Virus record (IMG/VR): IMGVR_UViG_2827231811_000003
Coordinates: 930 to 64,929 of that record
From: a virus
Taxonomy: Duplodnaviria > Caudoviricetes
Direction: 5' to 3' (one strand)
DNA: 64,000 nucleotides
Numbering within the stretch: position 1 is the stretch's first letter; each line of letters begins with the position of its first letter. Below the pieces are notes generated by a model. The model saw only the letters and a list, made by a program, of their open reading frames with translations. It did no database searches and was not told where the DNA came from. The translations under genes and the position numbers were made by a program. Below, piece after piece: positions 11,021-34,034 of the stretch.

Positions 11021-11024
11021 TGGT

Positions 11025-11255: not shown

Positions 11256-11268
11256 GCGAGCGCTCCTG

Positions 11269-12225: not shown

Positions 12226-12554
12226 CGTTCTGCCTCCTCAGGTGTGGCGGCGATGCTGTGCTCGCCGTGGTCGCTGGGCACCGACAGCGGGTTGCCGGCG
12301 GCTTCCTGCTCCGGGTCGAAGTCGGTGCGCAGGTACACCGCCACCGGGTCGCGGTCGATCGAGCCGTGGACAAGCAGCTCGTCGCCGCGCTCCTCGACCC
12401 ACGTGTCAACCTCGGCCGCGTTGGTCTCTTCGTCGTCGTCCTCGGTGGTGATGACGGACAGGTGCGCCCGCACGTCCGCGCGGACCTCCTCGAGGAGGCT
12501 CGGATCGGCGGTGACGTCCGTGCGGGGCACTGCTCGGGAAAACCGTGTGCTCAT
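12222..12554 (-). CDS. Hypothetical protein
   Basis: AGGAGG SD; coupled to the endolysin. Confidence 0.55.
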   Translation of the reverse strand: MSTRFSRAVPRTDVTADPSLLEEVRADVRAHLSVITTEDDDEETNAAEVDTWVEERGDELLVHGSIDRDPVAVYLRTDFDPEQEAAGNPLSVPSDHGEHSIAATPEEAER

Positions 12555-12565
12555 CTCCTCGCCTC

Positions 12566-12781
12566 CTACGCCGCGACAACCGTCGTGGAACCCGTGCTGT
12601 CGTTGATCGCCACGAGCCGCCCGGAGTTGTCGGTAGCGAGGCGCCAGCCGGGGATCGACACGTTGCTGCCGCCGGTCGTGGTGAGTGCCTGGTGCAGATA
12701 CGCCGTCGTCCGCGCAGCAGCGCGGGCCTGCTCACGCGCAGGTCGCAGGCTGGCGGATGGTCCTCGGAACTTCATGCGCAC
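12566..12781 (-). CDS. Small hypothetical (tail-associated) protein
   Basis: AGGAG SD; in tail operon. Confidence 0.5.
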   Translation of the reverse strand: MRMKFRGPSASLRPAREQARAAARTTAYLHQALTTTGGSNVSIPGWRLATDNSGRLVAINDSTGSTTVVAA

Positions 12782-12785
12782 GCTC

Positions 12786-14000
12786 CTATTCGGTGTCGGA
12801 CAACGGAGAGCCCTCGTTGGCGAGGGAGACCTGCACGGACTCGTTCATGCGGTCGCTGGACACGTCAGCGGTGACCTCGACCTCGTTGATGACGAACCGC
12901 TGGGTGACGGGGGTGCAGTACGAACGGAGCGCGACGGTGACCGGATAGCCGGGCACCAGCTCGTCGATGGTCACGTTCGCGTCGGGGGACAGCTGCGCGT
13001 TGTTCGGCACGATGATGTCGACCGGCGGCGGGTTGCCGTACGACGCCATGAGCCGGGCCAACGACCGGGCGGCCTCGTTGGTCGTGGCCGTCTGCGACGA
13101 CGAGGAGCGGAAGATCGCCCCGTAGAACGGGTCGACCGGGTCGACCGGCGTCCACCCCTGACCGGGCACCCAGTACGGCCACACACCCACCGGGGTGGGC
13201 TGGCTCGCCGGGGGCTGTGTGCCGTTGTCCTGAACCTCGTTCTGCGGCTGGGAGCCGACGACGACGCCGAGCGTGGCCGCGTCCAGGCCGGCCTCGCGCA
13301 CCACGAGGTCGGCGAGGAAGTCGTCTTCGGTCAGCCGCAGCGGTTTCCACGTGCGCGTCGTGGCCGTGGGGTAGAAGCAGCAGTAGCGGCCGATGGTGAA
13401 CATGGCCAGACCTGCGTCGATGATGCTGCGCACGGCCTCGCCGAGGTTCTTCTGCCCGATCTGCAACGCCTGGAACGTCGTCCGTACGCCTGACTCGCCG
13501 GGGATGATCAGGTACGGCAGGAGGTTCGGGTCGAGCCGGTCGTCGTTGATGTCCGTGCCTCGCACGCCGAGCGCGCCGGCGATGACGTCGCCGACGATGA
13601 CCGCGCTGTCGGCCGGCCCCCATGCTCCGGGGTTTTCCCGCGTGCGTTCGGTCCAGTTGTACGGCTCGAGCGTGACCCGCCGATCGAACCAGCCGAGCAT
13701 GTCGCGCGCCTCGAACGTGAAGCCGCTGCGGGTCTCCTCCTTGTTAACGATCGGGCCTTGCCAGACGAACTGGTCGTTGCGGTAGATGCTGAGTTCGTGG
13801 CCCCACGTGTGCACGTGGCCCAGGCGGGAGCACACGTCGCTGGACGCCTCGGACTTGGCCACCGTGATCGACGCTTCGGAGTAGTCGTCGAGCTTGCGAC
13901 CCCAGGAGATGTTCGTCGCGCCGTTGACGTGGGTGAACACGCGGTCGCCGCCCTGCATGTGAATGACGGCCTGGTAGCTGTCTGCGATTCCGAGAACCAT
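12786..14000 (-). CDS. Minor tail protein (hub/Tal-like)
   Basis: ISWGRKLDDYSEASITV and FVWQGPI motifs; TGATG coupling at 14000. Confidence 0.75.
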   Translation of the reverse strand: MVLGIADSYQAVIHMQGGDRVFTHVNGATNISWGRKLDDYSEASITVAKSEASSDVCSRLGHVHTWGHELSIYRNDQFVWQGPIVNKEETRSGFTFEARDMLGWFDRRVTLEPYNWTERTRENPGAWGPADSAVIVGDVIAGALGVRGTDINDDRLDPNLLPYLIIPGESGVRTTFQALQIGQKNLGEAVRSIIDAGLAMFTIGRYCCFYPTATTRTWKPLRLTEDDFLADLVVREAGLDAATLGVVVGSQPQNEVQDNGTQPPASQPTPVGVWPYWVPGQGWTPVDPVDPFYGAIFRSSSSQTATTNEAARSLARLMASYGNPPPVDIIVPNNAQLSPDANVTIDELVPGYPVTVALRSYCTPVTQRFVINEVEVTADVSSDRMNESVQVSLANEGSPLSDTE

Positions 14001-15358
14001 CAGCACGCGTCCTGTCGTTCGGCGAGCGAGATGGTCAGGTCGAGCCCTTGGGAGACGCCGTAGCGGCCGTCGATGACCATTTCGAGGTACATGCCGGTGG
14101 AGCATTCGAGCGTCGGCCAGGTGTAGACCCCGCCGTTTTGGCCGAACAGGATCGGCTCAGCGGTGCGGCTTCCGGCGCAGTCGACGGTGGCGACCTGGCG
14201 GCGCGAGTCCACGTAGAGCGTCGCGTACGGCGGCAGGTAGGCAATCCACAGTTCGGCGCACACGCCGCACGGGTTCAAGTTGTCGGGGTGGGGTGGTAGT
14301 TCGGCCGGGTTCGAGTGCCAGCGCAGCATCAGCGACCGCATCTGACGGTCGCCGTTGGCGATCTCGAAGACCGGCGCCTTCTCCAGCCACGAGTCCGTCC
14401 TGCCCGCGGGGATGCGGTACAGCGTGCGCCACGCGTTGGGGTAGAAATCGCCCTTGTAGCAGGGGTCCTTCGGCGGCCGCGGCACGATCGGCGTGTCCAG
14501 CGGCGGGCAGTCGTAGTTCGCGTCCGGCGGCGGGGTCAGACACGAGTTGTCCTGCTCGACGCGCTCGCAGTCGGCGTAGATCTGCTGGGAGTCCCAGTTC
14601 AACGCGACGGCGGTCCAGTGGTCGTCGAGGTCGGTGTTCGACAGCGCCCACAGCACGGTCGGCCGGTGGTACCAGTACGGCACGCCAGCCTTGATGGTCC
14701 AGGTGACCTCCGCCGTCACCCCGCCCTGAATGCGGGTCATCGAGGCGATCTCGGGGCCTTCGAGGAGGCGGCAGCGGAACAGGGTGCGCTCCAGCTCGTC
14801 GCCCCGCGCTGCCGCGTCGAAGTCGACGGGCGCCGCGCGGGAGTACAGCGCTGTCGTGCACGGCTCCGACGGGGTCGCAGCCGGCGGCACCGGGGGCGCG
14901 GCGTAGACAACGAGCTGGTCGGCCTCGCCGGCGTCGTTGCACAGGTCGCCGCGCAGGGCGGACGCGAGCCACCCGAGCCCGTACGCCAGTGCGGCGCGGT
15001 CGGCGGCCACCAGGGTGGCGGTGAAGCCGACTTCGCGGGCGCCGCGGCGGATCGGCCCCGGCCGGGCGCCGTCGCTGAGCAGGTCCGTCCACGACGACGA
15101 ACCGGTGCCGCCGGCCCCGTCGATCGCGGAACCGACGACGCCGAGGAACTGCTTCGAGTCGGGGTTGAAGGCGTCGTACCAGGGAGCGTCGTCCTGGTCG
15201 GGGGAGCTGTAGGGCGCGTGGCCGAGCGATTCGGCCATCCACGGCCCGCCGGTGCAGTTGACGTTGATCCCGTAGGCGCGCGCATAGGCTGCGGCACGGG
15301 CGGAGTTGACGATCTCCATCCCGGAGTAACAGGCGAAACCTTCCCAGGCCACGGTCAT
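14000..15358 (-). CDS. Minor tail protein (distal-tail-like)
   Basis: Directly follows the tape measure; EIVNSARAAAY..PWYD motif. Confidence 0.7.
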   Translation of the reverse strand: MTVAWEGFACYSGMEIVNSARAAAYARAYGINVNCTGGPWMAESLGHAPYSSPDQDDAPWYDAFNPDSKQFLGVVGSAIDGAGGTGSSSWTDLLSDGARPGPIRRGAREVGFTATLVAADRAALAYGLGWLASALRGDLCNDAGEADQLVVYAAPPVPPAATPSEPCTTALYSRAAPVDFDAAARGDELERTLFRCRLLEGPEIASMTRIQGGVTAEVTWTIKAGVPYWYHRPTVLWALSNTDLDDHWTAVALNWDSQQIYADCERVEQDNSCLTPPPDANYDCPPLDTPIVPRPPKDPCYKGDFYPNAWRTLYRIPAGRTDSWLEKAPVFEIANGDRQMRSLMLRWHSNPAELPPHPDNLNPCGVCAELWIAYLPPYATLYVDSRRQVATVDCAGSRTAEPILFGQNGGVYTWPTLECSTGMYLEMVIDGRYGVSQGLDLTISLAERQDAC

Positions 15359-15364
15359 ACCTCC

Positions 15365-18013
15365 CTATGCCTGCGCGAGCGCGGTGACGCGGTGGTGGAT
15401 ACGGGCAGCGGCGATCTCCGGGTCCTGAGCGGCGCTCTGCATCGTGATCGGAGCGTTCACGGTGACCTGGCGTTGCATCGATCTGGTGATCTGGCTGTTC
15501 CTGGTCAGCGCGTGCACAGTGCGTTCGGCGTGCGCCATTTCCGGGGTGCGGCGGCCGCCGACCTGGCCGGCGGCGAGCAGGGCCGGCGACGGCACCGCGG
15601 GAACGTCCGCCGACACCGCCCCGGCAACCTTGCGGACGGCGCGCCGAACCTGCGGCACCCCGCGGGACATGCCCTTGGCGATGTTGCGGGAGATTGCCGC
15701 GCCCGAGTTCTCCGGCGCCCCACCACCAGAGAGCGGCCCCTCCTTGGCAGGGGAGAACGGCAGGAAGTCGCGGATCTTCCCGGCGACGTTGCCGATCGCG
15801 TCGCCGATGCTGCCGATCATCGACTTGATGCCGTCGATCAGCCCGCTGATGATGTTCTTCCCCGCCTGGAGCAGCCACGTGCCGGCGCCCGAGAAGAAGC
15901 CCATGATCTTGCCGGGCAGGCCGCGGATGAACCCGAGAACCGCGGAAATGCCGCGCTGCACGCCGCCCTTGATGCCGTTCCACGCGGTCGTCACGACCGA
16001 CTTCAACCCGTTCCAGGCAGAGGTCCAGACGCCCTTGATGGTGCTGAGCGCCCCGGAGATGACGCCGCGGATCGCGCTAAGCGCGCCCGTCACCACGCCC
16101 TTGATCGCGTTCCAGATGCCCGACGCGACGGTCTTGATGCCGTTCCACGCGGCGGTCCAGTTGCCGGTGATCACGCCGAGGACGGTCGAGATGATGCCGC
16201 GGATCACGGTCAGGGCGCCCTTCACGACGCTCTTGATCGCGTTCCATGCGCCGGAGATGACACCCTTGATGGCGGTCATCGCGCCGCGGATCACCGACAT
16301 CGCCGAGTTGAACGAGGCGCGGATAGCGGCGCCGATCACGGCAAGGACCCTGCGGATCACGCCGCCGATCCGGCTGTTCCAAAGGTTCGACCACCAGGCG
16401 GCGAGCTGGTTCCACCGCGCGGTGATCCAGTTCGCGACGGCGGTGAAGATGGGCAGCACGGTGGTCTGAAACCACGTCACGACCGCCGAGACGGCGCCCT
16501 TGATGCCGTTCCACAGGCCGATCCAGAACTCTCGGAACGCGGCGGACCGGTTCCACAAGGTGATGAACGCGGTGACGAGCAGGCCGATCGCGGTGATGAC
16601 CAGGCCGATGGGGTTGGCGCGCAGGATCGCGCCGAACGCCTTGAACGCCACCCCGGCGACCCGGATCGCCTTACCCATGGCCAGGACGCCCTTGCCGAGT
16701 TTGGCGAACATGCCGATCGCCCGGCCGACGCCGGATGTCATCGTGCCGAGCGCCCACGTGACCGGGCCGATCGCGGCGACGAGCGCGCCGATCGCGGTGA
16801 CGACCTTCATCGTCGTCGGCGACGCCTCGTTGAGCTTCGAGATCAGGCCGGTCAGGCCGGACACCATCGACGTCATGAAGTCGAGCAGCCCGGACTGCCC
16901 GATCGAGATCATCAGGCCCTCGAACGCAGACTTGAGCTGCTTCATGGACCCGTTGAAGCCCTCCATCTGCTTGCCCGCGATCTTCTCCGCGGTTCCGCCG
17001 GAGTTGTTGAGCTCCTTCGTCAGGTCCTTCAACGCGCTCGAACCCTGTCCGACCAGGGCGGACATGGCTGGGCCGGCTTCCTGGCCGAAGATCGTCATCA
17101 TGTCGGCGGTGGAGGCGCCGGACTTTTCGAGCTGGCCGACGATGCTGGTCAGGCTCTTGAGGTTGCCGCTCGAGTCGACGGCGGACACGCCGAGCTTCTT
17201 GAGAGTCTTCTGCGCCTGCGCGCTGGGGTTGAGCAGCATCGCGATCGAGCTGCGCAGCGCGGTGCCGGCCTCCGAGCCCTGGATACCGGCGTTACCGAGG
17301 AGACCGATCGCCGAGGAGACCTCGTTGAACTCCAGGCCAGCGCTCGAGGCGACGGGGGCGACCATCTTGAACGACTCGCCCAGCATCCGCATGTCGGTGT
17401 TCGTGCTGGTGAACGTCTTGGCCAGCGCGTCGTTGACCTTGCCCAGGTCAGCGGCTTGCATCCCGTAGCCGGACAGGACGTTCGAGGCGATGTCGGCCGC
17501 GTCCGCGAGGTTCAGCCCACCGGCCGCTGCGAGGTTCATCGTGTCCGGCAGGGCCTTCATGGTCTCGGAGGTGTCGAAACCGGCCATGCTCAGATACGTC
17601 ATGGCGTCGGCGGCTTCGCTCGCCGAGAACTGCGTGGTCGACCCCATCTGCTTGGCGAGGTCTTCCATCTTGGCCAGCTCGCCGCCGGTGGCGCCGGAGA
17701 TCGCGCTCACCTTGTTCATCGACGCCTGGAAGTCGCCGGACATCTTGAGTGCGGTGGCGCCGACGCCGGCCAGCGGCAGCGTCACCGACTTCGTCAGGGT
17801 CTGGCCCACTGCCTGCATCCGGCCGCCGGCGGATTGCAGCGAGTCGGACATGCCTTGCGACAGTGAGCGACCGGCCTGTTGCCCGGTCTCGGCCGCGGCG
17901 GACTGGGCCGCGTTGCCCGCCTGAGACATGGCGGAGCGGACTTCGCTGGAGACGTTGGATCCGTCAACGGTCAGCTCGACGACGGCCTGCGCGACGGCGC
18001 CTCCGGACGGCAT
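15365..18013 (-). CDS. Tape measure protein (TP901 family)
   Basis: FQASMNKVSAISGAT, TQFSASEAADAM and GIQGSEAGTALRS motifs; Trp-spaced helical repeats. Confidence 0.95.
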   Translation of the reverse strand: MPSGGAVAQAVVELTVDGSNVSSEVRSAMSQAGNAAQSAAAETGQQAGRSLSQGMSDSLQSAGGRMQAVGQTLTKSVTLPLAGVGATALKMSGDFQASMNKVSAISGATGGELAKMEDLAKQMGSTTQFSASEAADAMTYLSMAGFDTSETMKALPDTMNLAAAGGLNLADAADIASNVLSGYGMQAADLGKVNDALAKTFTSTNTDMRMLGESFKMVAPVASSAGLEFNEVSSAIGLLGNAGIQGSEAGTALRSSIAMLLNPSAQAQKTLKKLGVSAVDSSGNLKSLTSIVGQLEKSGASTADMMTIFGQEAGPAMSALVGQGSSALKDLTKELNNSGGTAEKIAGKQMEGFNGSMKQLKSAFEGLMISIGQSGLLDFMTSMVSGLTGLISKLNEASPTTMKVVTAIGALVAAIGPVTWALGTMTSGVGRAIGMFAKLGKGVLAMGKAIRVAGVAFKAFGAILRANPIGLVITAIGLLVTAFITLWNRSAAFREFWIGLWNGIKGAVSAVVTWFQTTVLPIFTAVANWITARWNQLAAWWSNLWNSRIGGVIRRVLAVIGAAIRASFNSAMSVIRGAMTAIKGVISGAWNAIKSVVKGALTVIRGIISTVLGVITGNWTAAWNGIKTVASGIWNAIKGVVTGALSAIRGVISGALSTIKGVWTSAWNGLKSVVTTAWNGIKGGVQRGISAVLGFIRGLPGKIMGFFSGAGTWLLQAGKNIISGLIDGIKSMIGSIGDAIGNVAGKIRDFLPFSPAKEGPLSGGGAPENSGAAISRNIAKGMSRGVPQVRRAVRKVAGAVSADVPAVPSPALLAAGQVGGRRTPEMAHAERTVHALTRNSQITRSMQRQVTVNAPITMQSAAQDPEIAAARIHHRVTALAQA

Positions 18014-18044
18014 CGGACCAACCCCTACGTACGAGTGGGGCGTC

Positions 18045-18062
18045 CGGCCACGATTTCGCCAG
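18045..18062 (-). promoter_or_regulatory. Late-gene motif CTGGCGAAATCGTGGCCG upstream of tape measure
   Basis: Exact 18-mer ending 32 nt before the start. Confidence 0.7.
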
Positions 18063-18113
18063 GCAACGCGCTGAGCTTGCAGTCAGGATAACGGTGTGGG
18101 TCTGGGGTGCAGG

Positions 18114-18704
18114 TCAGCCGCGCCCGATTTGCGCCATGGCCTGCATGAACGAGTTCGCTTCGACCTCGTCCGACCACGACGCCGGCGCGGGATCGCGGGG
18201 TTTGCCGGACATGGTTCGCGGCGGTGGCGGACCCCAGATTTCGTGATCCAGCCTGCCCAGTTCCGTGTCCTTGGTGCACAGGGAACGTCGCCAGTAGTAC
18301 GCCGCCGACAGCAGTCGGCCGATCGGCTGGGCGAGCGGGTCAACGCCGCGGGTGTAGGACCAGCCGTCGAAGATCATCCAGTTGCCGTACACCGACCCGG
18401 CGAGGCGTGTGGCGGCGTACAGGTCCATGCCGCACAGATCGCCCAGCACGGTCTCGGCGACGTTCTCCAGGTCGTCGAGGTCGAACGGGTCGTCCGGGTC
18501 ACGCAGGCGCAGCCACAGCCGCTCGGGGCCGTCGCCGTCGAGCTGAGTGGGAATGAGGTGCCACCAGCACCCCGGCGGGTCGAGGACGAGTGCGTCGAGG
18601 ATCGTGCGCGTGTCCAGCTCCGGCAGGGTGTAGGTGTCGTCGTCGACGGCGAACGTGATCGGCAGCTGCGCAGGTGGACCCAGCCGTCGGTCAGCTGCGC
18701 GCAC
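18114..18704 (-). CDS. Tail assembly chaperone-like protein
   Basis: Just upstream of TMP; RLRDPDDPFDLDDL motif; own AGGAG SD. Confidence 0.65.
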   Translation of the reverse strand: MRAADRRLGPPAQLPITFAVDDDTYTLPELDTRTILDALVLDPPGCWWHLIPTQLDGDGPERLWLRLRDPDDPFDLDDLENVAETVLGDLCGMDLYAATRLAGSVYGNWMIFDGWSYTRGVDPLAQPIGRLLSAAYYWRRSLCTKDTELGRLDHEIWGPPPPRTMSGKPRDPAPASWSDEVEANSFMQAMAQIGRG

Positions 18705-19377
18705 GGGCGCGGCGCTCCTGGCGGTTCAGACCAGGCTTCCACGCTTCGATGAGGTGCTTGACCATCTCGGCGACGTGGATCAGTTCCAGGTCGTCGTCGC
18801 GGCTTCGGAGCCTGCGGTTGATCATCCAGGCGTCCTGCTCGGTCAGCGCGGCGTCGAGGAACAGCGCGACGAGCCATGCCTGCTGGCCGGTGTTCGCGCC
18901 GGTGGCCAGGGAGGCGGAGGTGAACAGCAGGACGATGTCTTTCGGCGGGTAGGCCGTGAGCTGGATGTCGAGGTCGGGCAGCTCGACCGGGATTTCCCGG
19001 TCGGTCGGTGGTGTGTAGTCCGAAGTGACCACGACAGGATCGGGTTCGTAGTGCGGGTCGTCGTCGGGCCAGTTCGACCACCGCTGGACCAGGCCGGTGA
19101 GCATCGTCAGGCACGCGTCCAGGTTCACCGGGTCGTTGAACTCGCAGATGCGCTCGAAGAACCGTTGCCGGTCCTGCGGTTCGAGGGTGCCTTCGACGAA
19201 GTCGAGCACGGCCATCGCCTGGTCGGCCTCACCCACGGACTGGCCAGCGACCTGTTGAGCGAAAAACAGCACCGAGTCCTTCGGCCGCTGCACGGTGATG
19301 TGTTCGCCGCACAGGTCGACCTGTACGGGCATCGGCGTGCGTTTGGAGCGTGGGGTCTCGAACGTCAGCGTCTTCAT
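18691..19377 (-). CDS. Tail assembly chaperone with tandem duplicated domain
   Basis: PKDSVLFF / PKDIVLLF internal repeat; position before TMP. Confidence 0.6.
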   Translation of the reverse strand: MKTLTFETPRSKRTPMPVQVDLCGEHITVQRPKDSVLFFAQQVAGQSVGEADQAMAVLDFVEGTLEPQDRQRFFERICEFNDPVNLDACLTMLTGLVQRWSNWPDDDPHYEPDPVVVTSDYTPPTDREIPVELPDLDIQLTAYPPKDIVLLFTSASLATGANTGQQAWLVALFLDAALTEQDAWMINRRLRSRDDDLELIHVAEMVKHLIEAWKPGLNRQERRARARS

Positions 19378-24959: not shown

Positions 24960-25225
24960 TGCGGTGCGAGGTGGTGCTCTACACCACGGAGGACGAGGGC
25001 ACGTTCGAGGCGGTGTTCGTGGATGGCGTGCGGGTCGACGCCGAGGTCACCCATCTCGATCCCGGACGTGGCGGCTGGGAGCTCCGCGAGTGGCGCAAGG
25101 AACGTGAGGCTGATGCTCAGGCCGCCAGCGTCGCGGCGGCCGCGGTGATCCGACAGTGGGCAGCGGACGCCGAGTCCTCTCGCTACATCAGCCGAGACCC
25201 CTCATCTGAGGTCGCAAATCTATAA
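24956..25225 (+). CDS. Hypothetical protein
   Basis: GTGA overlap. Confidence 0.55.
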   Translation: MMRCEVVLYTTEDEGTFEAVFVDGVRVDAEVTHLDPGRGGWELREWRKEREADAQAASVAAAAVIRQWAADAESSRYISRDPSSEVANL

Positions 25226-25246
25226 GTGCCCCAGCGTTTCCGCTGG

Positions 25247-25300
25247 TCAACACACGTCGATCCCCTCGCTCACGTTGGCGAGGGGATCGACGTGTGTTGA
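25247..25300. terminator. Bidirectional terminator-like 23 bp perfect hairpin
   Basis: TCAACACACGTCGATCCCCTCGC (25247-25269) and its reverse complement (25278-25300) between convergent genes. Confidence 0.65.
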
Positions 25301-25303
25301 GCG

Positions 25304-26203
25304 TCAGCGGACGTTCATCCAGTCCGCGATCATCTTGTCGAGCAGCTGCCATGGCTTGCCGGCCTCGATCTCTCCGGAGTCGGTGGCGGTCTTGAGGGCC
25401 TTCGTCATGGCCGCTGCTGTGGTCGCTGGGACGGTCCGAGAGCCGAAGACCACCTCCAACCCGACGTGGCCTTGATGCAGCGGCTCCGCCGATTCTGGGG
25501 ATAGGTAGCCCTCTTGCAGGTCGGTCAGGTGGTTCTCCGTCAGCGCGATCAGCACGCCGAGCGCGGTGGCGACGTTGCCGATGTTGTGCGAGCTGTGCGC
25601 TGCGGCGAGTGCGTCGAGCATCGGGTTGTAGTCCCGGTAGGCGGCCAGCCAGGTCTCGTCGACGGCCTTGCTCAGCGATTCCAGGGCGTCGCGGGCGGCG
25701 TCGGCCTCCGGCGGCAGGAACGTCAACTGCACGGTGTGGAAATCGAGGTTGGCCTCGGACAGGCTCTCCAGGTCGACCTTGTCCAGCAGTTCCAGGGTCT
25801 TGTCGTCGAGCCCGGCGTAGCCGCGGTAGTCGATGTCCTCGATGGATTCGTAGAGCTGCTTGAGGATCGCGATGTCGTCCTCGCCCTCGATGGCGTTGTG
25901 CGACAGCTGGAGCGCGACCTGGCGGGCTTTCGGCAGGTTCTGGGTGATGAGTTTGCAGTCGGCCTCGACAATGCCGGCGTCCACGGCAGCTTGCACGCGG
26001 TGGTTGCCGGACAGGATCAGCTCTCGGCCCTCGTCATACTCGCCGCCGGAGTAGATCAGCGGCGTGGAGGTCAGCTCCCCGTCCTCGCGCAGGTTCTCGA
26101 CCAGCCGCTGGTAGGTCTCCTGCCGCATGTAGCGGGCGTTCGTGTCCAGCGGGGTCAGGTCGGCCAGCGTGCGGCGGACGATGGTGGTGTCGAGCTTCGT
26201 CAT
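25304..26203 (-). CDS. ParB/Sulfiredoxin-like N-terminal domain protein
   Basis: NARYM, ILSGNHRVQAA and LSHNAIEGEDD motifs. Confidence 0.85.
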   Translation of the reverse strand: MTKLDTTIVRRTLADLTPLDTNARYMRQETYQRLVENLREDGELTSTPLIYSGGEYDEGRELILSGNHRVQAAVDAGIVEADCKLITQNLPKARQVALQLSHNAIEGEDDIAILKQLYESIEDIDYRGYAGLDDKTLELLDKVDLESLSEANLDFHTVQLTFLPPEADAARDALESLSKAVDETWLAAYRDYNPMLDALAAAHSSHNIGNVATALGVLIALTENHLTDLQEGYLSPESAEPLHQGHVGLEVVFGSRTVPATTAAAMTKALKTATDSGEIEAGKPWQLLDKMIADWMNVR

Positions 26204-26790
26204 GTGCGCACTCCTGCGTACTCGTCGTGGAGGGTGTCGCCGGTCCACAGCGCCAGTTCGAGCGCGAGCACGAGGTCGTCGTGACCGGATGCGGCCTCGT
26301 GCTTGTGGTAGCCGGATCGGGTCGGTCGGCGGGCGAACCTGCGCAGCTGGTCCATCGTGGCCACGCCGCCGTCGCTGTCGGGCAGGGAGATGCCGGACTG
26401 TTCGAGCGCGACTTGGAGCGTTTCGGTCAGCCGGTGTTTGCCGACGGTGTAGTCGTGCTCGTCCGTGCGGGCGAGGGTGCGGGAGCTGCCGATGGTGATC
26501 GCGCAGATGTGCAGGCCGGGCCGGTTCCGGCGGGCCATTTCGACCACGGCCGCTCCGATGCCGGTGGCGTCGATCGACAGCACGGTCTGGTGCCCGGCGG
26601 CGTGGAACGCGCCCGCGAGGCTGGTCGCCATCTTCGCCAGGTCCAGGTACTCGGTGCCGAGTTCGATGTTGCCGATCTCCAGCACGGACCAGTGCGGGCG
26701 GTGGCTGTTCGGCCGCGGGTCGCCGGAGTGCAGCACGCCGAGGGCGGCGGGGTCGTGTTCGCGGCCGACGTCGAGCCCGATGGAGATCAT
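26200..26790 (-). CDS. Stand-alone terminase large-subunit nuclease (RNase H fold) domain
   Basis: IGLDVGREHD, IDATGIG and GHDDLVLAL acidic triad motifs; no ATPase domain. Confidence 0.75.
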   Translation of the reverse strand: MISIGLDVGREHDPAALGVLHSGDPRPNSHRPHWSVLEIGNIELGTEYLDLAKMATSLAGAFHAAGHQTVLSIDATGIGAAVVEMARRNRPGLHICAITIGSSRTLARTDEHDYTVGKHRLTETLQVALEQSGISLPDSDGGVATMDQLRRFARRPTRSGYHKHEAASGHDDLVLALELALWTGDTLHDEYAGVRT

Positions 26791-28118
26791 GCCGCCACCT
26801 GTGCGTGCTTGGCCTTCCACATTTCCAGCGCCTCGGCGAGTGTCCATTGGCCGAGCGGTCCGCCGTATTGCAGCTGGTAGGCGTAGTGCTCGTCGTCGCA
26901 GGGCTTGCGCGAGTGCAGCTTGATGCCGGGTACGCCGCGGCCGTATTTGCCGGACGTGGGGTTGTTGGTGAATGCCGTGGTCGACCAGGTCGTGACCCGC
27001 TTCGACAGGGCGCGCTGAACTAGGGTCTGCGCCTCCGACGAGATGGCGGCCATGACGATCAACTTCGACAGGCGTTTGTAGCTGGTCGGCGCGACGGAGA
27101 AGTCCGACATGAGGTACGCGTCGAGGCCGAACTTCGGCGGCAAGTACCCGAACGCACCGATGATGCGGCCGCCGGAGGACACGGCACACGAGAACAACGG
27201 CTGACCAGGTGCGATCCCTCTCGCCAGGTACGCCGAGCGCAGCGAGTTGAACTGGCCGCCGCTGAGGGGGTGGAGGGTGAGGTCGTCGCCGATCTCTTCA
27301 CCGGGGCCGAGCCTGGGCATGAGCACCGGCTCGACCTTCTGCCGCGGGCCGACCCACCGGTGCCGTCCCGGCTGGGCGTAGACCCAGAACGGGCGCGCTC
27401 GCGGCCCGACCTGGACGTAGCCGACCCGGTGTTCTTCCAGCTCCGGGGCCTCGTTCAGCAGCCCGAGAATCCAGTTCGGCCGGTCGGTGATCAGCGAGAT
27501 CATCTCGTCGCGGCCGTCCTCGCCGAACTCCTCGTAGACGGGCGTGGGCCAGTCGAAGTGGTTGGTGATGCCGGCGAACATGGCCTCGTAGCCGCCGGCG
27601 TCGAACGGCGGGAAGCTCGCGAACGGCGCTTCGCGCGGCACGTCGTCGCGTAGGTAGTCCAGCACGTCGCCCGCGGTGAAGCTGGCCAGCTGCAACGTGG
27701 TGGCCTCGATCTTGGCGACGGTGTCGGCGTGCATCCGGTCGAACTGGTCGCGATGGGCCTGAACCATGCGCTGGTGGTAGCGGCCGGTCTTGCCGACGAA
27801 CTGGAGGAACCGGGTGCCGATCATCAGCGTGGCGAGGGTGCCGGCGCCGTCGTCGAGGTACTGGTCCAGCCAGTCCAGCTCGTCGCGGGAGTCGTCGGCC
27901 ACGCGGAACGGCAACGGCTGGCCGGAGTAGTACCAGCCCAACGCGCAGGAGTAGGCGTTGACGTCGTTGGAGTGGAGCCGGAATCGGCCCTGAGCGGCGA
28001 GGGTGCGTTCGATGGTGAGGTTTCCGGAGCAGCCGATGTAGACGTCGCCGTCGGGCCACGAGCGGGCGTGTTCGGCCACGATGGACCGCATTTCGGCAGG
28101 GATCGTGCCCTGGAACAT
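26787..28118 (-). CDS. Putative DNA-modifying enzyme: methyltransferase-like N-terminus plus GNAT/Mom-like C-terminus
   Basis: VYIGCSGN, HSNDV and FPPF; C-terminal GRIIGAFGY..YLMSDF..RLSKLI..TTAFT; GGAGAAGG SD. Confidence 0.6.
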   Translation of the reverse strand: MFQGTIPAEMRSIVAEHARSWPDGDVYIGCSGNLTIERTLAAQGRFRLHSNDVNAYSCALGWYYSGQPLPFRVADDSRDELDWLDQYLDDGAGTLATLMIGTRFLQFVGKTGRYHQRMVQAHRDQFDRMHADTVAKIEATTLQLASFTAGDVLDYLRDDVPREAPFASFPPFDAGGYEAMFAGITNHFDWPTPVYEEFGEDGRDEMISLITDRPNWILGLLNEAPELEEHRVGYVQVGPRARPFWVYAQPGRHRWVGPRQKVEPVLMPRLGPGEEIGDDLTLHPLSGGQFNSLRSAYLARGIAPGQPLFSCAVSSGGRIIGAFGYLPPKFGLDAYLMSDFSVAPTSYKRLSKLIVMAAISSEAQTLVQRALSKRVTTWSTTAFTNNPTSGKYGRGVPGIKLHSRKPCDDEHYAYQLQYGGPLGQWTLAEALEMWKAKHAQVAA

Positions 28119-28151
28119 CGAATGCTCACCTTCTCCCGGTAGGTGAGCGTC

Positions 28152-28169
28152 CGGCCACGATTTCGCCAG
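28152..28169 (-). promoter_or_regulatory. Late-gene motif upstream of the modification operon
   Basis: Exact 18-mer ending 34 nt before ATG 28118. Confidence 0.7.
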
Positions 28170-28182
28170 TCGACGCCAATCG

Positions 28183-28254
28183 AGCGCCGGGCCGGAATCG
28201 AACCAGGTAGCTCCCCACCGGGAGTGGGGTGTGTTGCCGTTACACCACCAGCGC
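28183..28254 (-). tRNA. tRNA-Gly (anticodon CCC), no encoded CCA
   Basis: Manual cloverleaf: GCGCTGG/CCGGCGC acceptor, GTGT/ACAC D-stem, CCCCA-CTCCCGG-TGGGG anticodon arm, GGTTCGATTCC T-loop, U73; one C49-C65 mismatch. Confidence 0.75.
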
Positions 28255-28318
28255 ACGTCGAACGGGTCGGAGAGTAACACCCGACGCCGACATGGTCTTA
28301 CACTCGCTGGCACCGGGT

Positions 28319-28335
28319 CTGGCGGATCGTGGCCG
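28319..28335 (+). promoter_or_regulatory. Late-gene motif upstream of small terminase
   Basis: CTGGCGGATCGTGGCCG, 41 nt before the start. Confidence 0.65.
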
Positions 28336-28375
28336 CCGGTAGCACTGCACATGCGCGCTACCGGGAGGCCGCTCG

Positions 28376-28921
28376 ATGCCGTATCGCCGTGATCCTGAGC
28401 GGGATGCGTGGGACCGCCAGCCTGGCGAACCTGCTGAACAGTTCGACTGGTTCACCCACTACCGCAACGAGGGCCACCGTCGGAGTTACCAGCGCACGGC
28501 CGACAAGTTCGAGGTCACGCTGGCCCGTGTCCGGGGCGCGGCACAGCGCTACGAGTGGCCGCTGCGGCTCGCCGAGTTCAAGTCGGACCAGTCCCGGCAG
28601 ATCCGCGAGCGGTTCGACGATGTGATCGAGCAGGGATTGGCCCCGTTCGCGCAGGCGTTCGCCCGGCTGTCGGCGTTGGCGGTGCAGAACCCTGGTGAGT
28701 CCGTGCCGCCGGATCGGGCGTTGCAGGCCGCCACGTCGGCGCTGCGGGTGGCTCGTGAGCCTGAGGTGCAGGCGCTGATCCGCACGCACGGCGATTCGCA
28801 GGACCAGTACCTGATCGGCGACACGATCCTGACCGCCCTCAACGCCCACCCGGAGGCGAAGGCGGCCGCGCTCGAAGCGCTCGAAGCGCTGGACCAGCGC
28901 ACCCACGGCGGAGGCGAGTGA
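28376..28921 (+). CDS. Terminase small subunit-like protein
   Basis: WDRQPGE..FTHYRNEGHRRS..W pattern; precedes the ATPase. Confidence 0.6.
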   Translation: MPYRRDPERDAWDRQPGEPAEQFDWFTHYRNEGHRRSYQRTADKFEVTLARVRGAAQRYEWPLRLAEFKSDQSRQIRERFDDVIEQGLAPFAQAFARLSALAVQNPGESVPPDRALQAATSALRVAREPEVQALIRTHGDSQDQYLIGDTILTALNAHPEAKAAALEALEALDQRTHGGGE

Positions 28922-28924
28922 GCC

Positions 28925-29728
28925 GTGCGGATCGTCTCCAAGCTGCTGATCGAGCATCACCCGCCGCTGGTGATGGCTCGTTCCGGGCTGTCGCCGGACG
29001 TGTGGCAGTCCCGCCTGCTGCACGACCGGCCACATCGGGCGATCGTCGTGTGCTCCCGGCAGGCCGGCAAGAGCACCGTGTGCGCGGGCAAGGCGCTGCA
29101 CCGGGCATTCACCGACCCGAACGCCGAGATCGTGGTCGTGTCACCGACGCAGCGGCAGTCCACGCTGCTGGTCAGCAAGGTGCGAAGGTTCGCCGAAGCG
29201 CTCGGGATCGAGCTGACCCGGGACGCGGCGACGTTCCTGCGCTTGACCAACGGGTCGACGATCTACGCGCTGCCCGGCCACGCCGACACGGTGCGCGGCT
29301 ACTCGCCCGAGCTGCTGATCATCGATGAGGCTGCCTACACCGCCGAGGACCTGTACACCGCGTGCCTGCCGATGTTGGCCGCGACCGGCGGCGATCTGGT
29401 GGCGATCTCCACACCGCGAGGCCGGGACGGGTGGTTCTGGCACGAGTGGAACGGCGAGGGCGCCGACGGGTGGGAGCGCATCGAAGTGCCGTACACCGAG
29501 ATCTCGCGGATCTCCGAGGAGTTCATCACCCAGCAGAAGGCGTCGATGTCGGCCGAACGGTTCGCCGCCGAGTATGAGTGCAGCTTCAACAGCTCGACGT
29601 TCGGCCTGTTCAACGCCGCCGACATCGCGGCCGCCGGCCCCCGCCCGTTGCCGGACGAGGGCGGGCTGCCAGACCCGTGGCAGATCATGGCCCGTAACCG
29701 GGCTCCGTTCCAGGCGGCCGCGTCATGA
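28925..29728 (+). CDS. Terminase large subunit, ATPase domain only
   Basis: SRQAGKST Walker A, LLIIDEAA Walker B, ISTPRG coupling motif; only 267 aa. Confidence 0.85.
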   Translation: MRIVSKLLIEHHPPLVMARSGLSPDVWQSRLLHDRPHRAIVVCSRQAGKSTVCAGKALHRAFTDPNAEIVVVSPTQRQSTLLVSKVRRFAEALGIELTRDAATFLRLTNGSTIYALPGHADTVRGYSPELLIIDEAAYTAEDLYTACLPMLAATGGDLVAISTPRGRDGWFWHEWNGEGADGWERIEVPYTEISRISEEFITQQKASMSAERFAAEYECSFNSSTFGLFNAADIAAAGPRPLPDEGGLPDPWQIMARNRAPFQAAAS

Positions 29729-30537
29729 CCCGCGAAGTCCGCACCGATGCGCCCGACGCGCCGGACGCGCGCGTGCTGGCGCTCGATGTCGGCGCCTACG
29801 GCCACAAGGGCTCGATCTCGGCGATGTTCTGGTACCGCCAGGGCGGCCACCTGCACGCCCACGCCTCGGACCTGTTGCCGCCGGAGGCGACGGTGCGCGA
29901 CCAGCTCGACGTCCTTGAGGGGCTGGCCGAGTCCTACCCGGAGTACTGGCGGGTCTCGCCCGTGGTGGTGATCGGGGTGACCGTGCTGTCGGGAGAGGGT
30001 CGTCGCGAGGTCCGTCAGCACCTGGCCGACTGGTACAACCCTCCGACCCGGCGACGGCTGGTCGCGGTCGGCGACTACGCCGGCGAACAGTCCGGCGGCC
30101 GCGGTCTGGTCCCGCGGAAGAAGCTGCGCGACATGATCGCCCAGCGGCTCACGGCGCACACCCTGCATCTGACCAGCACGCAGCAGGAGGCGGTGTCGCT
30201 CTACAGCGGGCGGCGAGCCCGGCCGGTGCATGACGCGGACATCGACGGGTGGCGCCACGACGACACCGACGCGATCGCGTTGCCGGTGGCGCTGTCGTGC
30301 CTGGCGGCCCGGTCGTTGCTGCCGCCGCCGATGCCGACCGCGGAGCAGCGGTGGCGGCAGAAGGACCGGCTGGTGCGGGCTTGGCAGATCGAGATGGGCC
30401 TGTCCGAGCAGGAGGCCCACGAGCAGGCCCACCGGCACGGCCATCCGCGCGCGTTCCAGGCCACGACGACGAGCGTGTCGATGGCCATGCCCTCCCCTGA
30501 CGTTCCTGCTCTGAACCTGCCTGTGAAAGGGGCGTGA
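29725..30537 (+). CDS. Degenerate terminase-nuclease-like protein
   Basis: LALDVG and HDDTDAIAL retained; IDATG replaced by IGVTV; ATGA-coupled to the ATPase. Confidence 0.55.
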   Translation: MTREVRTDAPDAPDARVLALDVGAYGHKGSISAMFWYRQGGHLHAHASDLLPPEATVRDQLDVLEGLAESYPEYWRVSPVVVIGVTVLSGEGRREVRQHLADWYNPPTRRRLVAVGDYAGEQSGGRGLVPRKKLRDMIAQRLTAHTLHLTSTQQEAVSLYSGRRARPVHDADIDGWRHDDTDAIALPVALSCLAARSLLPPPMPTAEQRWRQKDRLVRAWQIEMGLSEQEAHEQAHRHGHPRAFQATTTSVSMAMPSPDVPALNLPVKGA

Positions 30538-32012
30538 CCGTGGCGAACATGGTGGACCGCATCGCGGGGTTTCTGGCCCCGACACCGCACGAACCGGGCG
30601 TGGAGGACTGGGTGCCGCCGGCATTGTCGGCGGCCGCGACGACGCCGCCGCAACCGACCACGCCGAAGAAGGCACGGTCCACCCCGCAGTCGCAGGACTG
30701 GCAGGAACGGGCGTGGGCGTTCTACCGCGCCAAAGGGCCGGCACGGCAGGCGGTCGACTGGCTGGCGAATGGCATCTCCCGAATGCACCTGTACATCGGG
30801 CAGATCAAGACCGACGGCGTGGGCGATCCCGAACCCGTCCCCGACCCCGGACTGGCCGGGGAAATCCTGGCCGAGCTGCACGAGGGCCGGCTGGGGCAGC
30901 GAGACATGCTGCACCGGCTCGCGGTGCACCTGCTCGTGCCGGGCGAAAGCTGGCTGATCGGCTACCCGCGGCCGCCCCAGCCCGGCGAGAAGAAGGACCA
31001 GACCACCGATCGGGGCACCGCGTGGCAGGTGTGCTCGCGCAAGGAGTGGGAGCTGGGCTCGGTCGGCGATGACACGGTCACCGTCAAGATCCCCCGACAT
31101 CCGAAGGCGGACGATGACGGCTGGGTCGAGTTCCCGTCCGCTGACGTGGTGGTCGTGCCGATCTACCAACCCGACCCGCAGGACGCGACGCGATCGACGT
31201 CGCGGTTCGAGTCCGCGATGGACGACCTGGCCGAGCTGGACGGCCTGTCCCGACGCACCGCGGCCGACATCAAGTCCCGCCTGGCCGGTGCTGGCCTGTT
31301 GCTGTTGCCCGAGTCGGCGACCGTGCCGAACCCCGGCATGTCCGAAGGCGGCGGTGTGGCCCCGATCCACGGCGATCCGCTGGTCGCGGCGCTCACCGCC
31401 GCGGCGAGCACAGCCATCCAGGACCCGGACTCGCCGTCGGCGACCGTGCCGATCACCGCGACCATCGCCGACGAAGCGATCGCGAAGATGCAGCACCTGA
31501 ACTTCTTCTCGGAGTTCGATTCGCAGGTCCCGACGTTGCGCGACGGCGCCCGCAATGCCGTCGCGGTGGCGCTCGACGTGCCGGCCACCGTGGTGCAGGG
31601 CATCGAGGACCTGAACCACTGGTCAGCCTGGTCGGTGCAGGAAGACGCCATCCGCACCCACCTCGGCCCGTTGGTGTCGCTGATCTGCGTCACCCTGACC
31701 CGCGAAGTGCTGTGGCCGGCGCTGCGCGCAGCCGGTCAGGGCGACGTGGAGAACATCGTGATCTGGTGGGACGCCTCGGAGATCGAGCTGCGCCCGGACC
31801 GGTCGCACACCGCGATCGAGGCGTTCAAGCACCGCATCATCGGCGGCGAGGCCACCCGTCGCGAACTCGGGTTCGACGAGGACGACGCGCCCGCTCCCGG
31901 CGAAATGCCGCCGCAGTTCGCCGACCCGCCCGGTGGCGGTGTCGGCCAGTCCGGGCCGCCGGATGCGCAGGAGTCCGACCAGCGCGTTCGTCAGCAGATG
32001 AACTCCGCGTAG
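30534..32012 (+). CDS. Portal protein (cluster-B-like)
   Basis: WQERAWAFY, SRLAGAGLLLLP and NHWSAW motifs; follows terminase. Confidence 0.8.
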   Translation: MTVANMVDRIAGFLAPTPHEPGVEDWVPPALSAAATTPPQPTTPKKARSTPQSQDWQERAWAFYRAKGPARQAVDWLANGISRMHLYIGQIKTDGVGDPEPVPDPGLAGEILAELHEGRLGQRDMLHRLAVHLLVPGESWLIGYPRPPQPGEKKDQTTDRGTAWQVCSRKEWELGSVGDDTVTVKIPRHPKADDDGWVEFPSADVVVVPIYQPDPQDATRSTSRFESAMDDLAELDGLSRRTAADIKSRLAGAGLLLLPESATVPNPGMSEGGGVAPIHGDPLVAALTAAASTAIQDPDSPSATVPITATIADEAIAKMQHLNFFSEFDSQVPTLRDGARNAVAVALDVPATVVQGIEDLNHWSAWSVQEDAIRTHLGPLVSLICVTLTREVLWPALRAAGQGDVENIVIWWDASEIELRPDRSHTAIEAFKHRIIGGEATRRELGFDEDDAPAPGEMPPQFADPPGGGVGQSGPPDAQESDQRVRQQMNSA

Positions 32013-32153
32013 CTCTCGCCCTCTCGCCCCGGCCGGGTTCCGGTCGGGGCTCTCGTTCGTCTTTCACGGCTCGCGTGATGAGTGCTTATCCGACCCGCTG
32101 AATGCCTATTAATCGAGGTACCTCGCATGAAACCCGAACCAAGGAGGAGACGA

Positions 32154-32483
32154 GTGACGAACACCGACGAGATCAGCGACGGCTTTCACACGTTCGGCGA
32201 GCTGTACGAGTACCGGATGCTGTACCACGCGCACGCCGTCCGAGCGTGGGTCCAGCTCGGTTGGCCGGTCTCGAAGTCGTGGCGCCATCACGACGGTGAG
32301 CTGTGCTTCGGTGGCGGCTGGTTCATCGTCGCTGCGCAGTTGCCAGCGGGGCAGGTGTCGAATCACTACCCGGCAGATGATTGGGAGCTGTTCGACTGTC
32401 CCGAGGTTGAGGTGTCTCCGCTGTGGGATGGGCACACGCCGTCGGAGGCGGCGGAGCGGCTGAGGAGTCAGCTCGGCTCATGA
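32154..32483 (+). CDS. WDGH-domain phage protein
   Basis: SDGFHTFGELYEYR, GWFIV, GQVSNHY and WDGHT motifs; AGGAGG SD. Confidence 0.75.
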   Translation: MTNTDEISDGFHTFGELYEYRMLYHAHAVRAWVQLGWPVSKSWRHHDGELCFGGGWFIVAAQLPAGQVSNHYPADDWELFDCPEVEVSPLWDGHTPSEAAERLRSQLGS

Positions 32484-32665
32484 AATACACCCCAGAAGAC
32501 ACGCGCCCCGACGGCCACATGTGGTTCAAGAAGTTCGCTGACGCCATCGGCCAGGCCGACCGGCGTGCTGCGCTGACCCGGTACCGCTACCGCGTCTACT
32601 ACGACCCGGCGAATCGCTGGTGGAACATCCGCGCGACGCACCGGCCCGTGGAAATCGATGACTGA
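32480..32665 (+). CDS. Small hypothetical protein
   Basis: ATGA overlap. Confidence 0.5.
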   Translation: MKYTPEDTRPDGHMWFKKFADAIGQADRRAALTRYRYRVYYDPANRWWNIRATHRPVEIDD

Positions 32666-34034
32666 GAACCGTCCGCACCGCCTGGCGGTGCTTCGTGAGC
32701 GCGTCGCTGAGCTCTCGTTCCCGTCGACGCCGTCGTCCGAGGTGTCGGCGTTGCTCGGGGAGTGGTTGGGCGAGGTGTACGCCAGGTCGGTGGCGACGGG
32801 CGATACGTACTGCTCGCATCTGGGTGCGCTGCTGGGTTGGTGTGCGGCCGAGGCGGTGGATCCGGTGTTGTTGGATCGGCGGGCATCGGCTCGGCTGGTG
32901 GATTGGTTGGCGTCGGCGCCGTCGCCGTCGACGGGCCGGGTGCGGACGCCGTCGGCGATCAACGGCGTGCTGTCGGCTGGTGTTCGGTGGCTGAGGTATT
33001 GCGAGGCGGCCGGGCAGCGGCCGGAGGGTCCGATTCCCCTGTCGAAGGTGGATCGGCCGTCAGTGAGTCGCTCAGGGCGCAGCGCGCGGTTGCGGCGGGA
33101 TGACGTGCACCGGCTGGTGTTGGCGGCGCGTGAGGATCACGTGCTGGGTGGGGTGCAGGCCAAGGCCATCTTGGCGACGTTGGCGCTGGTCGGGGTGCGT
33201 CCGACGGACCTGTGCCGCCTCGACCTTCACGATGTACACGATGCCGACGGCGGGACGTATGCGCTGGACCTGACGGGCAAGGGTGACAAGAAGCTGGTGC
33301 GCTGGGTGCCGCGTGTGGTGGCGGCGGACTGGTACGCCTACCTGTCGCGGGCGCGTGTCGAACCGGCGTCGGGTGAGGCGCTGCTGGTGCATCCGAGGCT
33401 GTACCGACGAGTGAACCGTGACGACGTGTTGGCGTTGGTCAAGCGGGCGGCGAGGCGGGCGGACGTGGCGGACCCGTGGCGGTTGACCGCTCGCGACTTC
33501 CGGCACTACTTCGCGACGGCGACCCGTTCGGTGTCGGATCTCCAGTCCCGCCAGCGGGCGCTCGGTCACTCCAGTCCGGCGACAACGGAGCTGTACGACG
33601 ACACGGCGTGGTCGATGGAGCTGGACCCGGCGATCCGCCTGGCCGCGGTGCACGACGACTACCCGGCTGAGGAGCTGACGCGCCCGTTGGCGCACGCCAT
33701 GCCGGCCACGCCGGTGGCGTCCGGGAAGCACGAGTGCGACTGCACGCCGCAGTGGAAGAACGCGCGCGTGTGGGCCGAGGCCGTCGGTGTCGACGAGTGG
33801 TGTCGCATCGAGATCACCGAGGCGTACGGGCCGGGTGTGCTGGCGGCGCTGCCGAATCCGGTGTGTGCGACGTGTTCGGCGACCTATCTCGGACCGTTCC
33901 GACTGCGGGCGGACCGGTCGTTCGATGCGCAGGCTGCGGAGATGGTCGACGAGCAGCTGCGCGAGTGGGACCGGTATCCGGAGGCGATGCAGCGGTCCGC
34001 GGAGCGTCGCCGCGACGTCGGGGACGAGTCGTGA
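32658..34034 (+). CDS. Second tyrosine recombinase with Cys-rich C-terminal extension
   Basis: GVRPTDL, GKGDK, RDFRH and LGHSS..TELY; CDC and CATC downstream. Confidence 0.8.
   Translation: MTENRPHRLAVLRERVAELSFPSTPSSEVSALLGEWLGEVYARSVATGDTYCSHLGALLGWCAAEAVDPVLLDRRASARLVDWLASAPSPSTGRVRTPSAINGVLSAGVRWLRYCEAAGQRPEGPIPLSKVDRPSVSRSGRSARLRRDDVHRLVLAAREDHVLGGVQAKAILATLALVGVRPTDLCRLDLHDVHDADGGTYALDLTGKGDKKLVRWVPRVVAADWYAYLSRARVEPASGEALLVHPRLYRRVNRDDVLALVKRAARRADVADPWRLTARDFRHYFATATRSVSDLQSRQRALGHSSPATTELYDDTAWSMELDPAIRLAAVHDDYPAEELTRPLAHAMPATPVASGKHECDCTPQWKNARVWAEAVGVDEWCRIEITEAYGPGVLAALPNPVCATCSATYLGPFRLRADRSFDAQAAEMVDEQLREWDRYPEAMQRSAERRRDVGDES

Follow-up and report, generated by a model that had tools for sequence, protein, structure and literature searches.

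The DNA analysed here (the window) is a 64,000-nucleotide stretch of DNA from an actinobacterial phage (Duplodnaviria; Caudoviricetes), corresponding to positions 930 to 64,929 of the 64.9-kb IMG/VR virus record IMGVR_UViG_2827231811_000003. Its G+C content is about 68% and the record is estimated to be about 53% complete. The subject of this analysis is its terminase locus, in which the large terminase (TerL) is represented by an ATPase-only subunit and by two separately encoded proteins predicted to have the terminase nuclease fold, one with a complete active site and one with an incomplete one. Four genes lie on the plus strand: the small subunit TerS (28376..28921), the 267-residue TerL ATPase subunit (28925..29728), a divergent terminase-nuclease-fold protein of 270 residues, here called Nuc270 (29725..30537), and the portal protein (30534..32012). 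They are tightly packed, with a 3-nucleotide gap or with ATGA or GTGA overlaps; the start of the Nuc270 gene overlaps the ATPase stop codon (ATGA) and its end overlaps the portal gene (GTGA). The second nuclease-fold protein, Nuc196, is a canonical stand-alone terminase nuclease of 196 residues encoded on the opposite strand (26200..26790), 2.1 kb from the ATPase gene. The two operons diverge from a single 254-bp gap (28122-28375). TerS was assigned from PHROG 6299 ('terminase small subunit', E = 1.1e-15) and the portal protein from PHROG 776 (E = 5.8e-106); every related locus has TerS ahead of the ATPase gene and the portal gene immediately after Nuc270.

The ATPase subunit matches Terminase_6N with 64.7 bits against a curated cut-off of 22 (E = 1.2e-17), which places it as a TerL ATPase domain, and PHROG 7579 ('terminase large subunit') with E = 1.8e-46. 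The latter match spans positions 2-228 of the 239-position profile; because a protein of 267 residues fills nearly the whole of it, PHROG 7579 is a family of short ATPase-only TerLs. Conservation is of the Walker (P-loop) type, with Gly48, Lys49, Asp134 and Glu135 among the residues invariant in 56 sequences. A preliminary description of this DNA had proposed that TerL stops after its ATPase domain and that the nuclease function is spread over two further genes; all three open reading frames are present, and the family matches confirm the split. This gene is the only Terminase_6N match in the 64.9-kb record. Record-wide family searches for a second terminase nuclease or ATPase returned only the known ATPase gene, which is a weak blank, since the PF17289 search also missed Nuc196.

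Nuc196 carries the motifs IGLDVG, IDATGIG and HDDLVLAL. In an alignment of 41 family members Asp7, Asp13, Asp74, Asp171 and Asp172 are invariant and His170 is nearly so. Both nuclease-fold proteins were modelled with AlphaFold, each from its own alignment of about 40 homologues. The Nuc196 model has a predicted local distance difference test (pLDDT) score of 90.7, and its best Foldseek match is the nuclease domain of G20c TerL (TM score 0.69, E = 4e-8). VIA superposed it on the same domain with Z = 17.6 and a root-mean-square deviation of 1.9 over 153 residues; the top 34 entries were all terminases, and RuvC scored Z = 10.8. The predicted structure is thus a terminase-type RNase H-like fold. 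By sequence, the Nuc196 family profile found the G20c TerL nuclease with E = 4.2e-10, and its matches to the G20c and P74-26 nucleases span about 1e-9 to 4e-10. The single sequence scored 17.4 bits against the Terminase_6C model (cut-off 22.6, E = 0.0044), and several homologues carry PF17289. In the HMMER alignment Asp7, Asp13, Asp74, His170, Asp171 and Asp172 of Nuc196 correspond to Asp294, Asp300, Asp347, His427, Asp428 and Asp429 of G20c TerL. In that enzyme Asp294, Asp347 and Asp429 are indispensable, His427 and Asp428 contribute, and Asp300 is conserved yet dispensable; the D347N substitution abolishes nuclease activity and is among the least active mutants (PMC5389553). Since all of the residues that matter in G20c are kept, the active site of Nuc196 is complete and the protein a canonical nuclease of the terminase type, as the preliminary description had read from its three acidic motifs. 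It is not joined covalently to a TerL ATPase domain and is encoded by a stand-alone gene in all relatives of the lineage.

The Nuc270 model (pLDDT 89.1) also has a terminase-type RNase H-like fold. Residues 1-202 superpose on the G20c TerL nuclease with Z = 15.2 and a root-mean-square deviation of 2.8 over 151 residues. Terminases fill the first 32 places of the VIA ranking; FtsA, NTPDase and RuvC come next with Z of about 9-10 (RuvC about 9.1), and TerLs form the majority of the named matches in the viral library BFVD. The superposition on G20c starts at residue 275 and includes the interdomain linker, whereas that of Nuc196 starts at residue 288, right at strand 1. Beyond the fold, Nuc270 has a C-terminal helical extension of about 70 residues (203-250), which is conserved (Ala219, Trp220, Gly239, His240 and Pro241) and has no counterpart in fused relatives. 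Detectable sequence similarity to terminase nucleases was not found. Nuc270 matched nothing in Pfam or the PHROGs, nothing by tblastn against 50,697 phage records and nothing in Riverbug TerL by BLASTP; its profile found nothing relevant among PDB sequences, and a HMMER profile search over 1.84 billion representatives returned only its own cluster (about 40 close homologues) and one repetitive spurious match. A feature search of the ESM Atlas gave stand-alone clusters of about 230-250 residues, one with 13% Terminase_6C members, which we treat as a lead only. Comparison of the Nuc270 and Nuc196 families with hhalign gave E = 0.23, which is not significant. The by-eye pairing of VGKHRL with VPRKKL in the preliminary description is in the register that hhalign and MAFFT also chose, but the similarity itself is not significant. 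The proposed kinship of Nuc270 and Nuc196 is one of predicted structure and not of sequence.

The two models also bear on the suggestion that one paralogue, more probably Nuc270, is a RuvC-like junction resolvase that debranches DNA before packaging and acts outside the motor. RuvC and poxvirus resolvases are among the fold matches, one source names the Kutzneria homologue of Nuc270 a 'RuvC-like resolvase', and searches of the record for RuvC and RusA families matched nothing (weak blanks), whereas Riverbug and Gordonia phage Sting carry RusA. Because the record is only about 53% complete, however, a resolvase may lie outside it. Terminases outrank RuvC for both proteins (15.2 versus about 9 for Nuc270; 17.6 versus 10.8 for Nuc196), Nuc270 does not have the strand-4 acid that RuvC also needs, and its gene lies between the ATPase and portal genes in every locus. 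Neither paralogue combines a best match to RuvC with the D-E-D-D tetrad of RuvC-type resolvases, and the Pfam RuvC model matches neither. We consider a resolvase very improbable. The two outcomes that would have undone the preliminary description, a better match of Nuc196 to RuvC and the absence of an RNase H fold in Nuc270, were therefore not observed, the latter for a predicted model.

What distinguishes Nuc270 is its active site. Its motifs are LALDVG (residues 18-23), IGVTV (83-87) and RHDDTDA (177-183), and residues Asp21, His27, Gly84, Thr86, Glu121, Arg131, Asp179 and Asp182 are invariant in 40 homologues. Residues were mapped from secondary-structure elements and MAFFT, not from the model coordinates. 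Asp21 of strand 1 and Asp179, Asp/Glu180 and Asp182 of the last helix are present, and His27 stands at the position of G20c Asp300. Strand 4, however, ends in I-G-V-T-V, with Gly84, Val85 and Thr86 at the position of the metal-B ligand Asp347 of G20c; Gly84 and Thr86 are invariant, there is no carboxylate, and the catalytic triad is incomplete. The basic residues Arg131, Lys132 and Lys133 lie opposite Lys118 of Nuc196. The downstream gene is thus, as first described, a paralogue of terminase nuclease fold (by its predicted structure) without the central acid. To call it degenerate fits the loss of the metal-B aspartate but overstates the case for the rest of the site, in which Asp21, Asp179 and Asp182 are invariant and Arg131, Lys132 and Lys133 are kept.

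The division between the ATPase and Nuc270 genes is genuine. An assembly error or a programmed frameshift at 29725 was considered and rejected. The junction recurs in at least eight other independent assemblies, variously as a 4-nucleotide overlap, a 14-nucleotide overlap or a 47-nucleotide gap; a contig from an independent study bridges 29688-29857 with zero differences; a TAA stands in the Nuc270 frame ten codons before the ATG; and the sequence has no slippery heptamer. Single-base deletions at 27359, 27812 and 28593 occur in low-depth contigs of one sequencing run and are probably errors of that run; none lies at the junction.

The arrangement is conserved in nine distinct related elements: the window, a prophage of Kutzneria viridogrisea, a 200-kb Saccharothrix replicon and six metagenomic or virome contigs. 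All nine have TerS, ATPase, Nuc270, portal and tyrosine recombinase genes on one strand and Nuc196 on the other strand within 2.5 kb, so that the co-occurrence and linkage of the three terminase genes are strict. Identity to the window is 58-69% for the ATPase, 52-66% for Nuc270 and 56-61% for Nuc196, so conservation is much the same in the two nuclease-fold families and in the ATPase.

Comparison with more distant relatives indicates which nuclease is the cognate half. The ATPase subunit is 45% identical to residues 4-243 of the fused 417-residue TerL of Thermus phage Riverbug, and Nuc196 aligns to residues 253-401 of the same protein (28% identity, E = 3e-10). Among relatives of the ATPase, many are ATPase-only proteins of 240-300 residues, mixed with fused forms of 415-450 residues. 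In four outgroup loci (L009, L011, L019 and L020) a gene for a Nuc196-like nuclease directly follows an ATPase-only gene, and of the outgroups it is L019 that matches best, with 51% identity to the ATPase and 34% identity (E = 2e-22) to Nuc196. Because the two proteins match complementary halves of Riverbug TerL and are adjacent in the outgroups, the ATPase and Nuc196 are the two halves of one ancestral TerL. With Nuc196 as the cognate nuclease half, Nuc270 is an extra nuclease-fold protein that now occupies the downstream slot.

Three of the outgroup loci (L009, L019 and L020), the nearest ones with a simple split of TerL, share an order of a TerS-sized or TerS-like gene (DUF5681 in L009; 181 residues in L019; 183 residues in L020), an ATPase gene and a nuclease gene. 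A primase is encoded in L009 as well and an integrase in L019, and no recognisable portal or capsid genes were found near any of the three. They may be satellite-like elements with a split terminase of their own.

In the window Nuc196 lies in an operon with two other minus-strand genes. One, at 26787..28121, encodes a fusion of a DAM-like domain with a phage GNAT-like domain, a putative DNA-modification enzyme (PF22555, E = 3.8e-91; PF22559, E = 4.3e-52). The other, at 25304..26204, encodes a ParB-like nuclease-domain protein (PHROG 7405, E = 4.6e-63, and further ParB-like PHROGs). The genes are chained by ATGA overlaps on both sides of Nuc196: the DAM-GNAT stop overlaps the Nuc196 start, and the start of the ParB-like gene is likely to be the ATG at 26204, which overlaps the Nuc196 stop. 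The cassette varies among relatives. One related locus (L018) has no such cassette, and there Nuc196 and TerS diverge directly from each other; in another (L006) Nuc196 follows ParB instead of preceding it; and in Mycobacterium phage Argie and Gordonia phage Sting DAM-GNAT adjoins ParB with no nuclease gene between them. As its tie to the cassette varies in these arrangements, the primary association of Nuc196 is with the terminase genes, and its embedding in the modification operon looks secondary. The placing of the apparently active copy inside a DNA-modification operon, to which the preliminary description had drawn attention, is correct for the window, but the arrangements in the relatives make the link a secondary one.

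These data also bear on the possibility that Nuc270, its active site remodelled, does the nuclease work of the terminase, and that Nuc196 was recruited for a different function alongside its DAM-GNAT and ParB partners, perhaps the cutting of unmodified DNA of the host or of competitors, or the processing of DNA for modification. Nuc270 does hold the canonical slot between the ATPase and portal genes, with translational coupling, and Nuc196 is translationally coupled to both cassette genes in the window. In the nearest fused and split TerLs, however, the nuclease half is orthologous to Nuc196 and not to Nuc270. The cassette, moreover, works without such a nuclease in Mycobacterium and Gordonia phages, Nuc196 stays beside TerS without the cassette in L018, and its place within the cassette differs between L006 and the window. 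Recruitment of this kind appears improbable.

ARAGORN placed a tRNA-Gly(CCC) gene (28182..28254, minus strand) in the gap from which the two operons diverge, ahead of DAM-GNAT. A tRNA-Gly has the same position in relatives (L015:8363-8435, L016:8408-8482, L017:6353-6427 and L003:7050-7121), Mycobacterium phage Argie included. Together with DAM-GNAT and ParB, the tRNA-Gly gene looks like part of a single mobile cassette. The presence of a GNAT fold beside a tRNA-Gly raises the speculative idea of an aminoacyl-tRNA-dependent DNA base modification of the Fem or LF-transferase kind. Repeats in the 28122-28375 gap are short and unremarkable. No sigma-70-type promoter was found in a scan of 25000-32700, and terminator-like sites there occur only at chance level.

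The reading that we favour, tentatively and at somewhat less than even confidence, is a three-part large terminase in which Nuc270 would serve structurally or in docking to the portal, while the cutting would be done in trans by Nuc196. The ATPase subunit (28925-29728) would form the translocating ring. Nuc270, its translation coupled to that of the neighbouring ATPase and portal genes, would sit in place of the TerL C-terminal domain. It would retain the nuclease fold, the interdomain-linker strand, the DNA-facing basic residues and the metal-A ligands, having lost the metal-B aspartate and gained the C-terminal helical extension. As a motor-resident DNA-binding subunit it would dock on the portal, probably through that extension, and would not carry out two-metal cleavage alone. 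Nuc196, the original nuclease half, would have been displaced to the divergent operon, from which the cuts in the concatemer would be supplied in trans during packaging. The choice of partners among the three subunits, the inactivity of Nuc270 and the cutting by Nuc196 are the parts of this scheme that we infer. The more general proposition, that two roles of the C-terminal domain have been separated into a motor-resident, portal-docking pseudo-nuclease and a free catalytic nuclease drawn into a divergent modification and ParB operon, is possible but more doubtful.

Several observations weigh against the favoured scheme. Glu65, Glu73 and Asp136 of Nuc270 are invariant over 40 sequences, beside Asp21, Glu121, Asp179 and Asp182, and so many invariant acids are hard to explain in a purely structural domain. 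Asp59 or Gln60 (at the start of helix 1) or Glu121 (after strand 5) might stand in for the missing metal-B ligand; a glutamate is a metal ligand in RNase H, which offers a parallel for such a substitute. The spacing of Asp179-x-x-Asp182 is closer to that of Asp138 and Asp141 in Escherichia coli RuvC than to the terminase HDD motif. The translational coupling of Nuc196 to the DAM-GNAT and ParB-like genes in the window would also suit a job outside packaging. Finally, Nuc270 may have arisen by duplication and fast divergence, or it may have arrived with the portal module from another phage, two origins that the sequence does not separate.

The retained acids are the natural starting point for the view that both nuclease-fold proteins are active and share the cutting, for example with one protein cutting at initiation under the direction of TerS and its partner at headful termination, or with the two forming a heterodimer in which each nicks one strand. 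Purifying selection on the two families is comparable, and Nuc270 keeps Asp21, Asp179, Asp182, Arg131, Lys132, Lys133, Glu121 and Asp136. As is generally accepted, and discussed in PMC5389553, a double-strand cut requires a lone terminase nuclease site either to act a second time or to be paired with a further site. The equivalent of G20c Asp347 is nevertheless missing from all 40 Nuc270 sequences, and D347N is among the least active G20c mutants; nor does any simple-split or fused relative need two nuclease domains. A division of labour therefore seems unlikely to us, though it deserves more weight than the recruitment of Nuc196 to the cassette.

If the two roles of the C-terminal domain have indeed been separated in this way, control of genome cutting would lie in how a separate subunit is supplied, a step that may be tied to DNA modification, rather than in a conformational change inside a single TerL chain. 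A split of this kind might further weaken defences that sense TerL, for example Avs.

The packaging genes continue beyond the portal gene with a 133-residue gene (32082-32483, plus strand; PHROG 3392, E = 4.5e-29, function not known), which lies between the portal and recombinase genes and is part of the packaging island, and a tyrosine recombinase of 458 residues (32658-34034, plus strand; Phage_integrase, E = 7e-14). All related loci have this recombinase after the portal gene (28-52% identity), which makes it a constant member of the island. Another integrase is encoded at 4197-5381 of the window. In one relative the portal match (L015:10882-13374) is broken by an in-frame insertion of about 1.2 kb at portal residue 364, and in another the portal protein has 818 residues, compared with 492 in the window; both enlargements are likely to be inteins or inserted domains. 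The virion genes of the window are dispersed. The terminase and portal genes are at 28-32 kb, and the tail genes occupy 8.7-19.4 kb (8675-19377) of the other strand. A MuF-like gene, the major head protein gene and a further gene of PHROG 779 (of unknown function) lie at 58-64 kb (58470-64000), and a head-tail adaptor gene at 0.2-1.1 kb (210-1103). ParA, a UvrD-like helicase and ERF are encoded between the virion gene blocks, with blocks also listed at 46736-48862 and 56360-57196 (both minus strand). Such scattering of virion genes is an unusual architecture, perhaps that of a phage-plasmid or of a hybrid with a conjugative element.

The means by which the terminase nuclease is silenced during translocation and fires only at initiation and at headful termination, and the mechanical contribution of its domain to the motor, are standing questions. 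In every studied system these roles sit on one polypeptide and are separable only by mutation; here fold and chemistry seem to have been placed on two conserved proteins, and the locus could thus offer a natural setting in which the structural part played by the terminase nuclease domain is studied apart from its cutting of DNA. The prophage of Kutzneria viridogrisea DSM 43850 provides a culturable host, so that the roles could be separated by deletion and reconstitution. For annotation, a gene without matches between an ATPase-only TerL gene and a portal gene can encode a terminase-nuclease fold, and the 'real' nuclease half may lie elsewhere. A literature search found no description of a lineage with an incomplete nuclease paralogue in place and an intact one displaced, and split or paralogous forms of TerL go unmentioned in a 2026 review of packaging motors.

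Among known systems, the closest sequence relatives of the ATPase and Nuc196 are the fused TerLs of Thermus and Meiothermus phages (G20c and P74-26, PDB entries 5m1f and 5tge; Riverbug; Meiothermus phage MMP17). Nuc196 shares with the G20c type the fold and the same six active-site residues. The fused enzymes are single chains of about 415 residues, whereas here the halves are encoded on opposite strands about 2 kb apart and a third nuclease-fold gene fills the C-terminal slot. The simple-split TerLs that are widespread among metagenomic relatives resemble the present locus in having an ATPase-only TerL of 240-300 residues and a separate nuclease of about 190-220 residues. In those, however, the downstream gene encodes the canonical nuclease and there is one nuclease-fold protein, while here the downstream slot holds a paralogue without the metal-B aspartate and the canonical copy is displaced. 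HK97-type HNH accessory nucleases, which some terminases reportedly need for cutting the genome, are encoded beside the terminase genes and act with a TerL that keeps its own active nuclease domain. The present locus likewise has a separately encoded nuclease-type protein by its terminase genes, but here the accessory itself has the terminase nuclease fold. RuvC and the poxvirus resolvases belong to the same RNase H-like superfamily and have a D-x-x-D spacing similar to that of Nuc270, with lower structural scores (Z of about 9-11 compared with 15-18).

A precedent for the role proposed for Nuc270 is the C-terminal domain of phi29 gp16, a nuclease-derived RNase H-like fold that does not cut and still binds DNA in the motor (PMC7672431). 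Nuc270 was compared with vestigial nucleases of this type by residue pattern: the metal-B ligand is lost, and Arg131, Lys132, Lys133 and the metal-A acids are kept. The gp16 domain, by contrast, is fused to its ATPase and has lost its catalytic residues altogether, and phi29, whose packaged genomes are protein-primed and of unit length, has no need of a nuclease. Nuc270, encoded as a polypeptide of its own, keeps the strand-1 aspartate and the helix acids and coexists with an intact nuclease. Split TerLs, common in metagenomic data, and an inactive terminase-derived domain, as in phi29, were thus already known; what seems new here is the presence of both paralogues together in one lineage.

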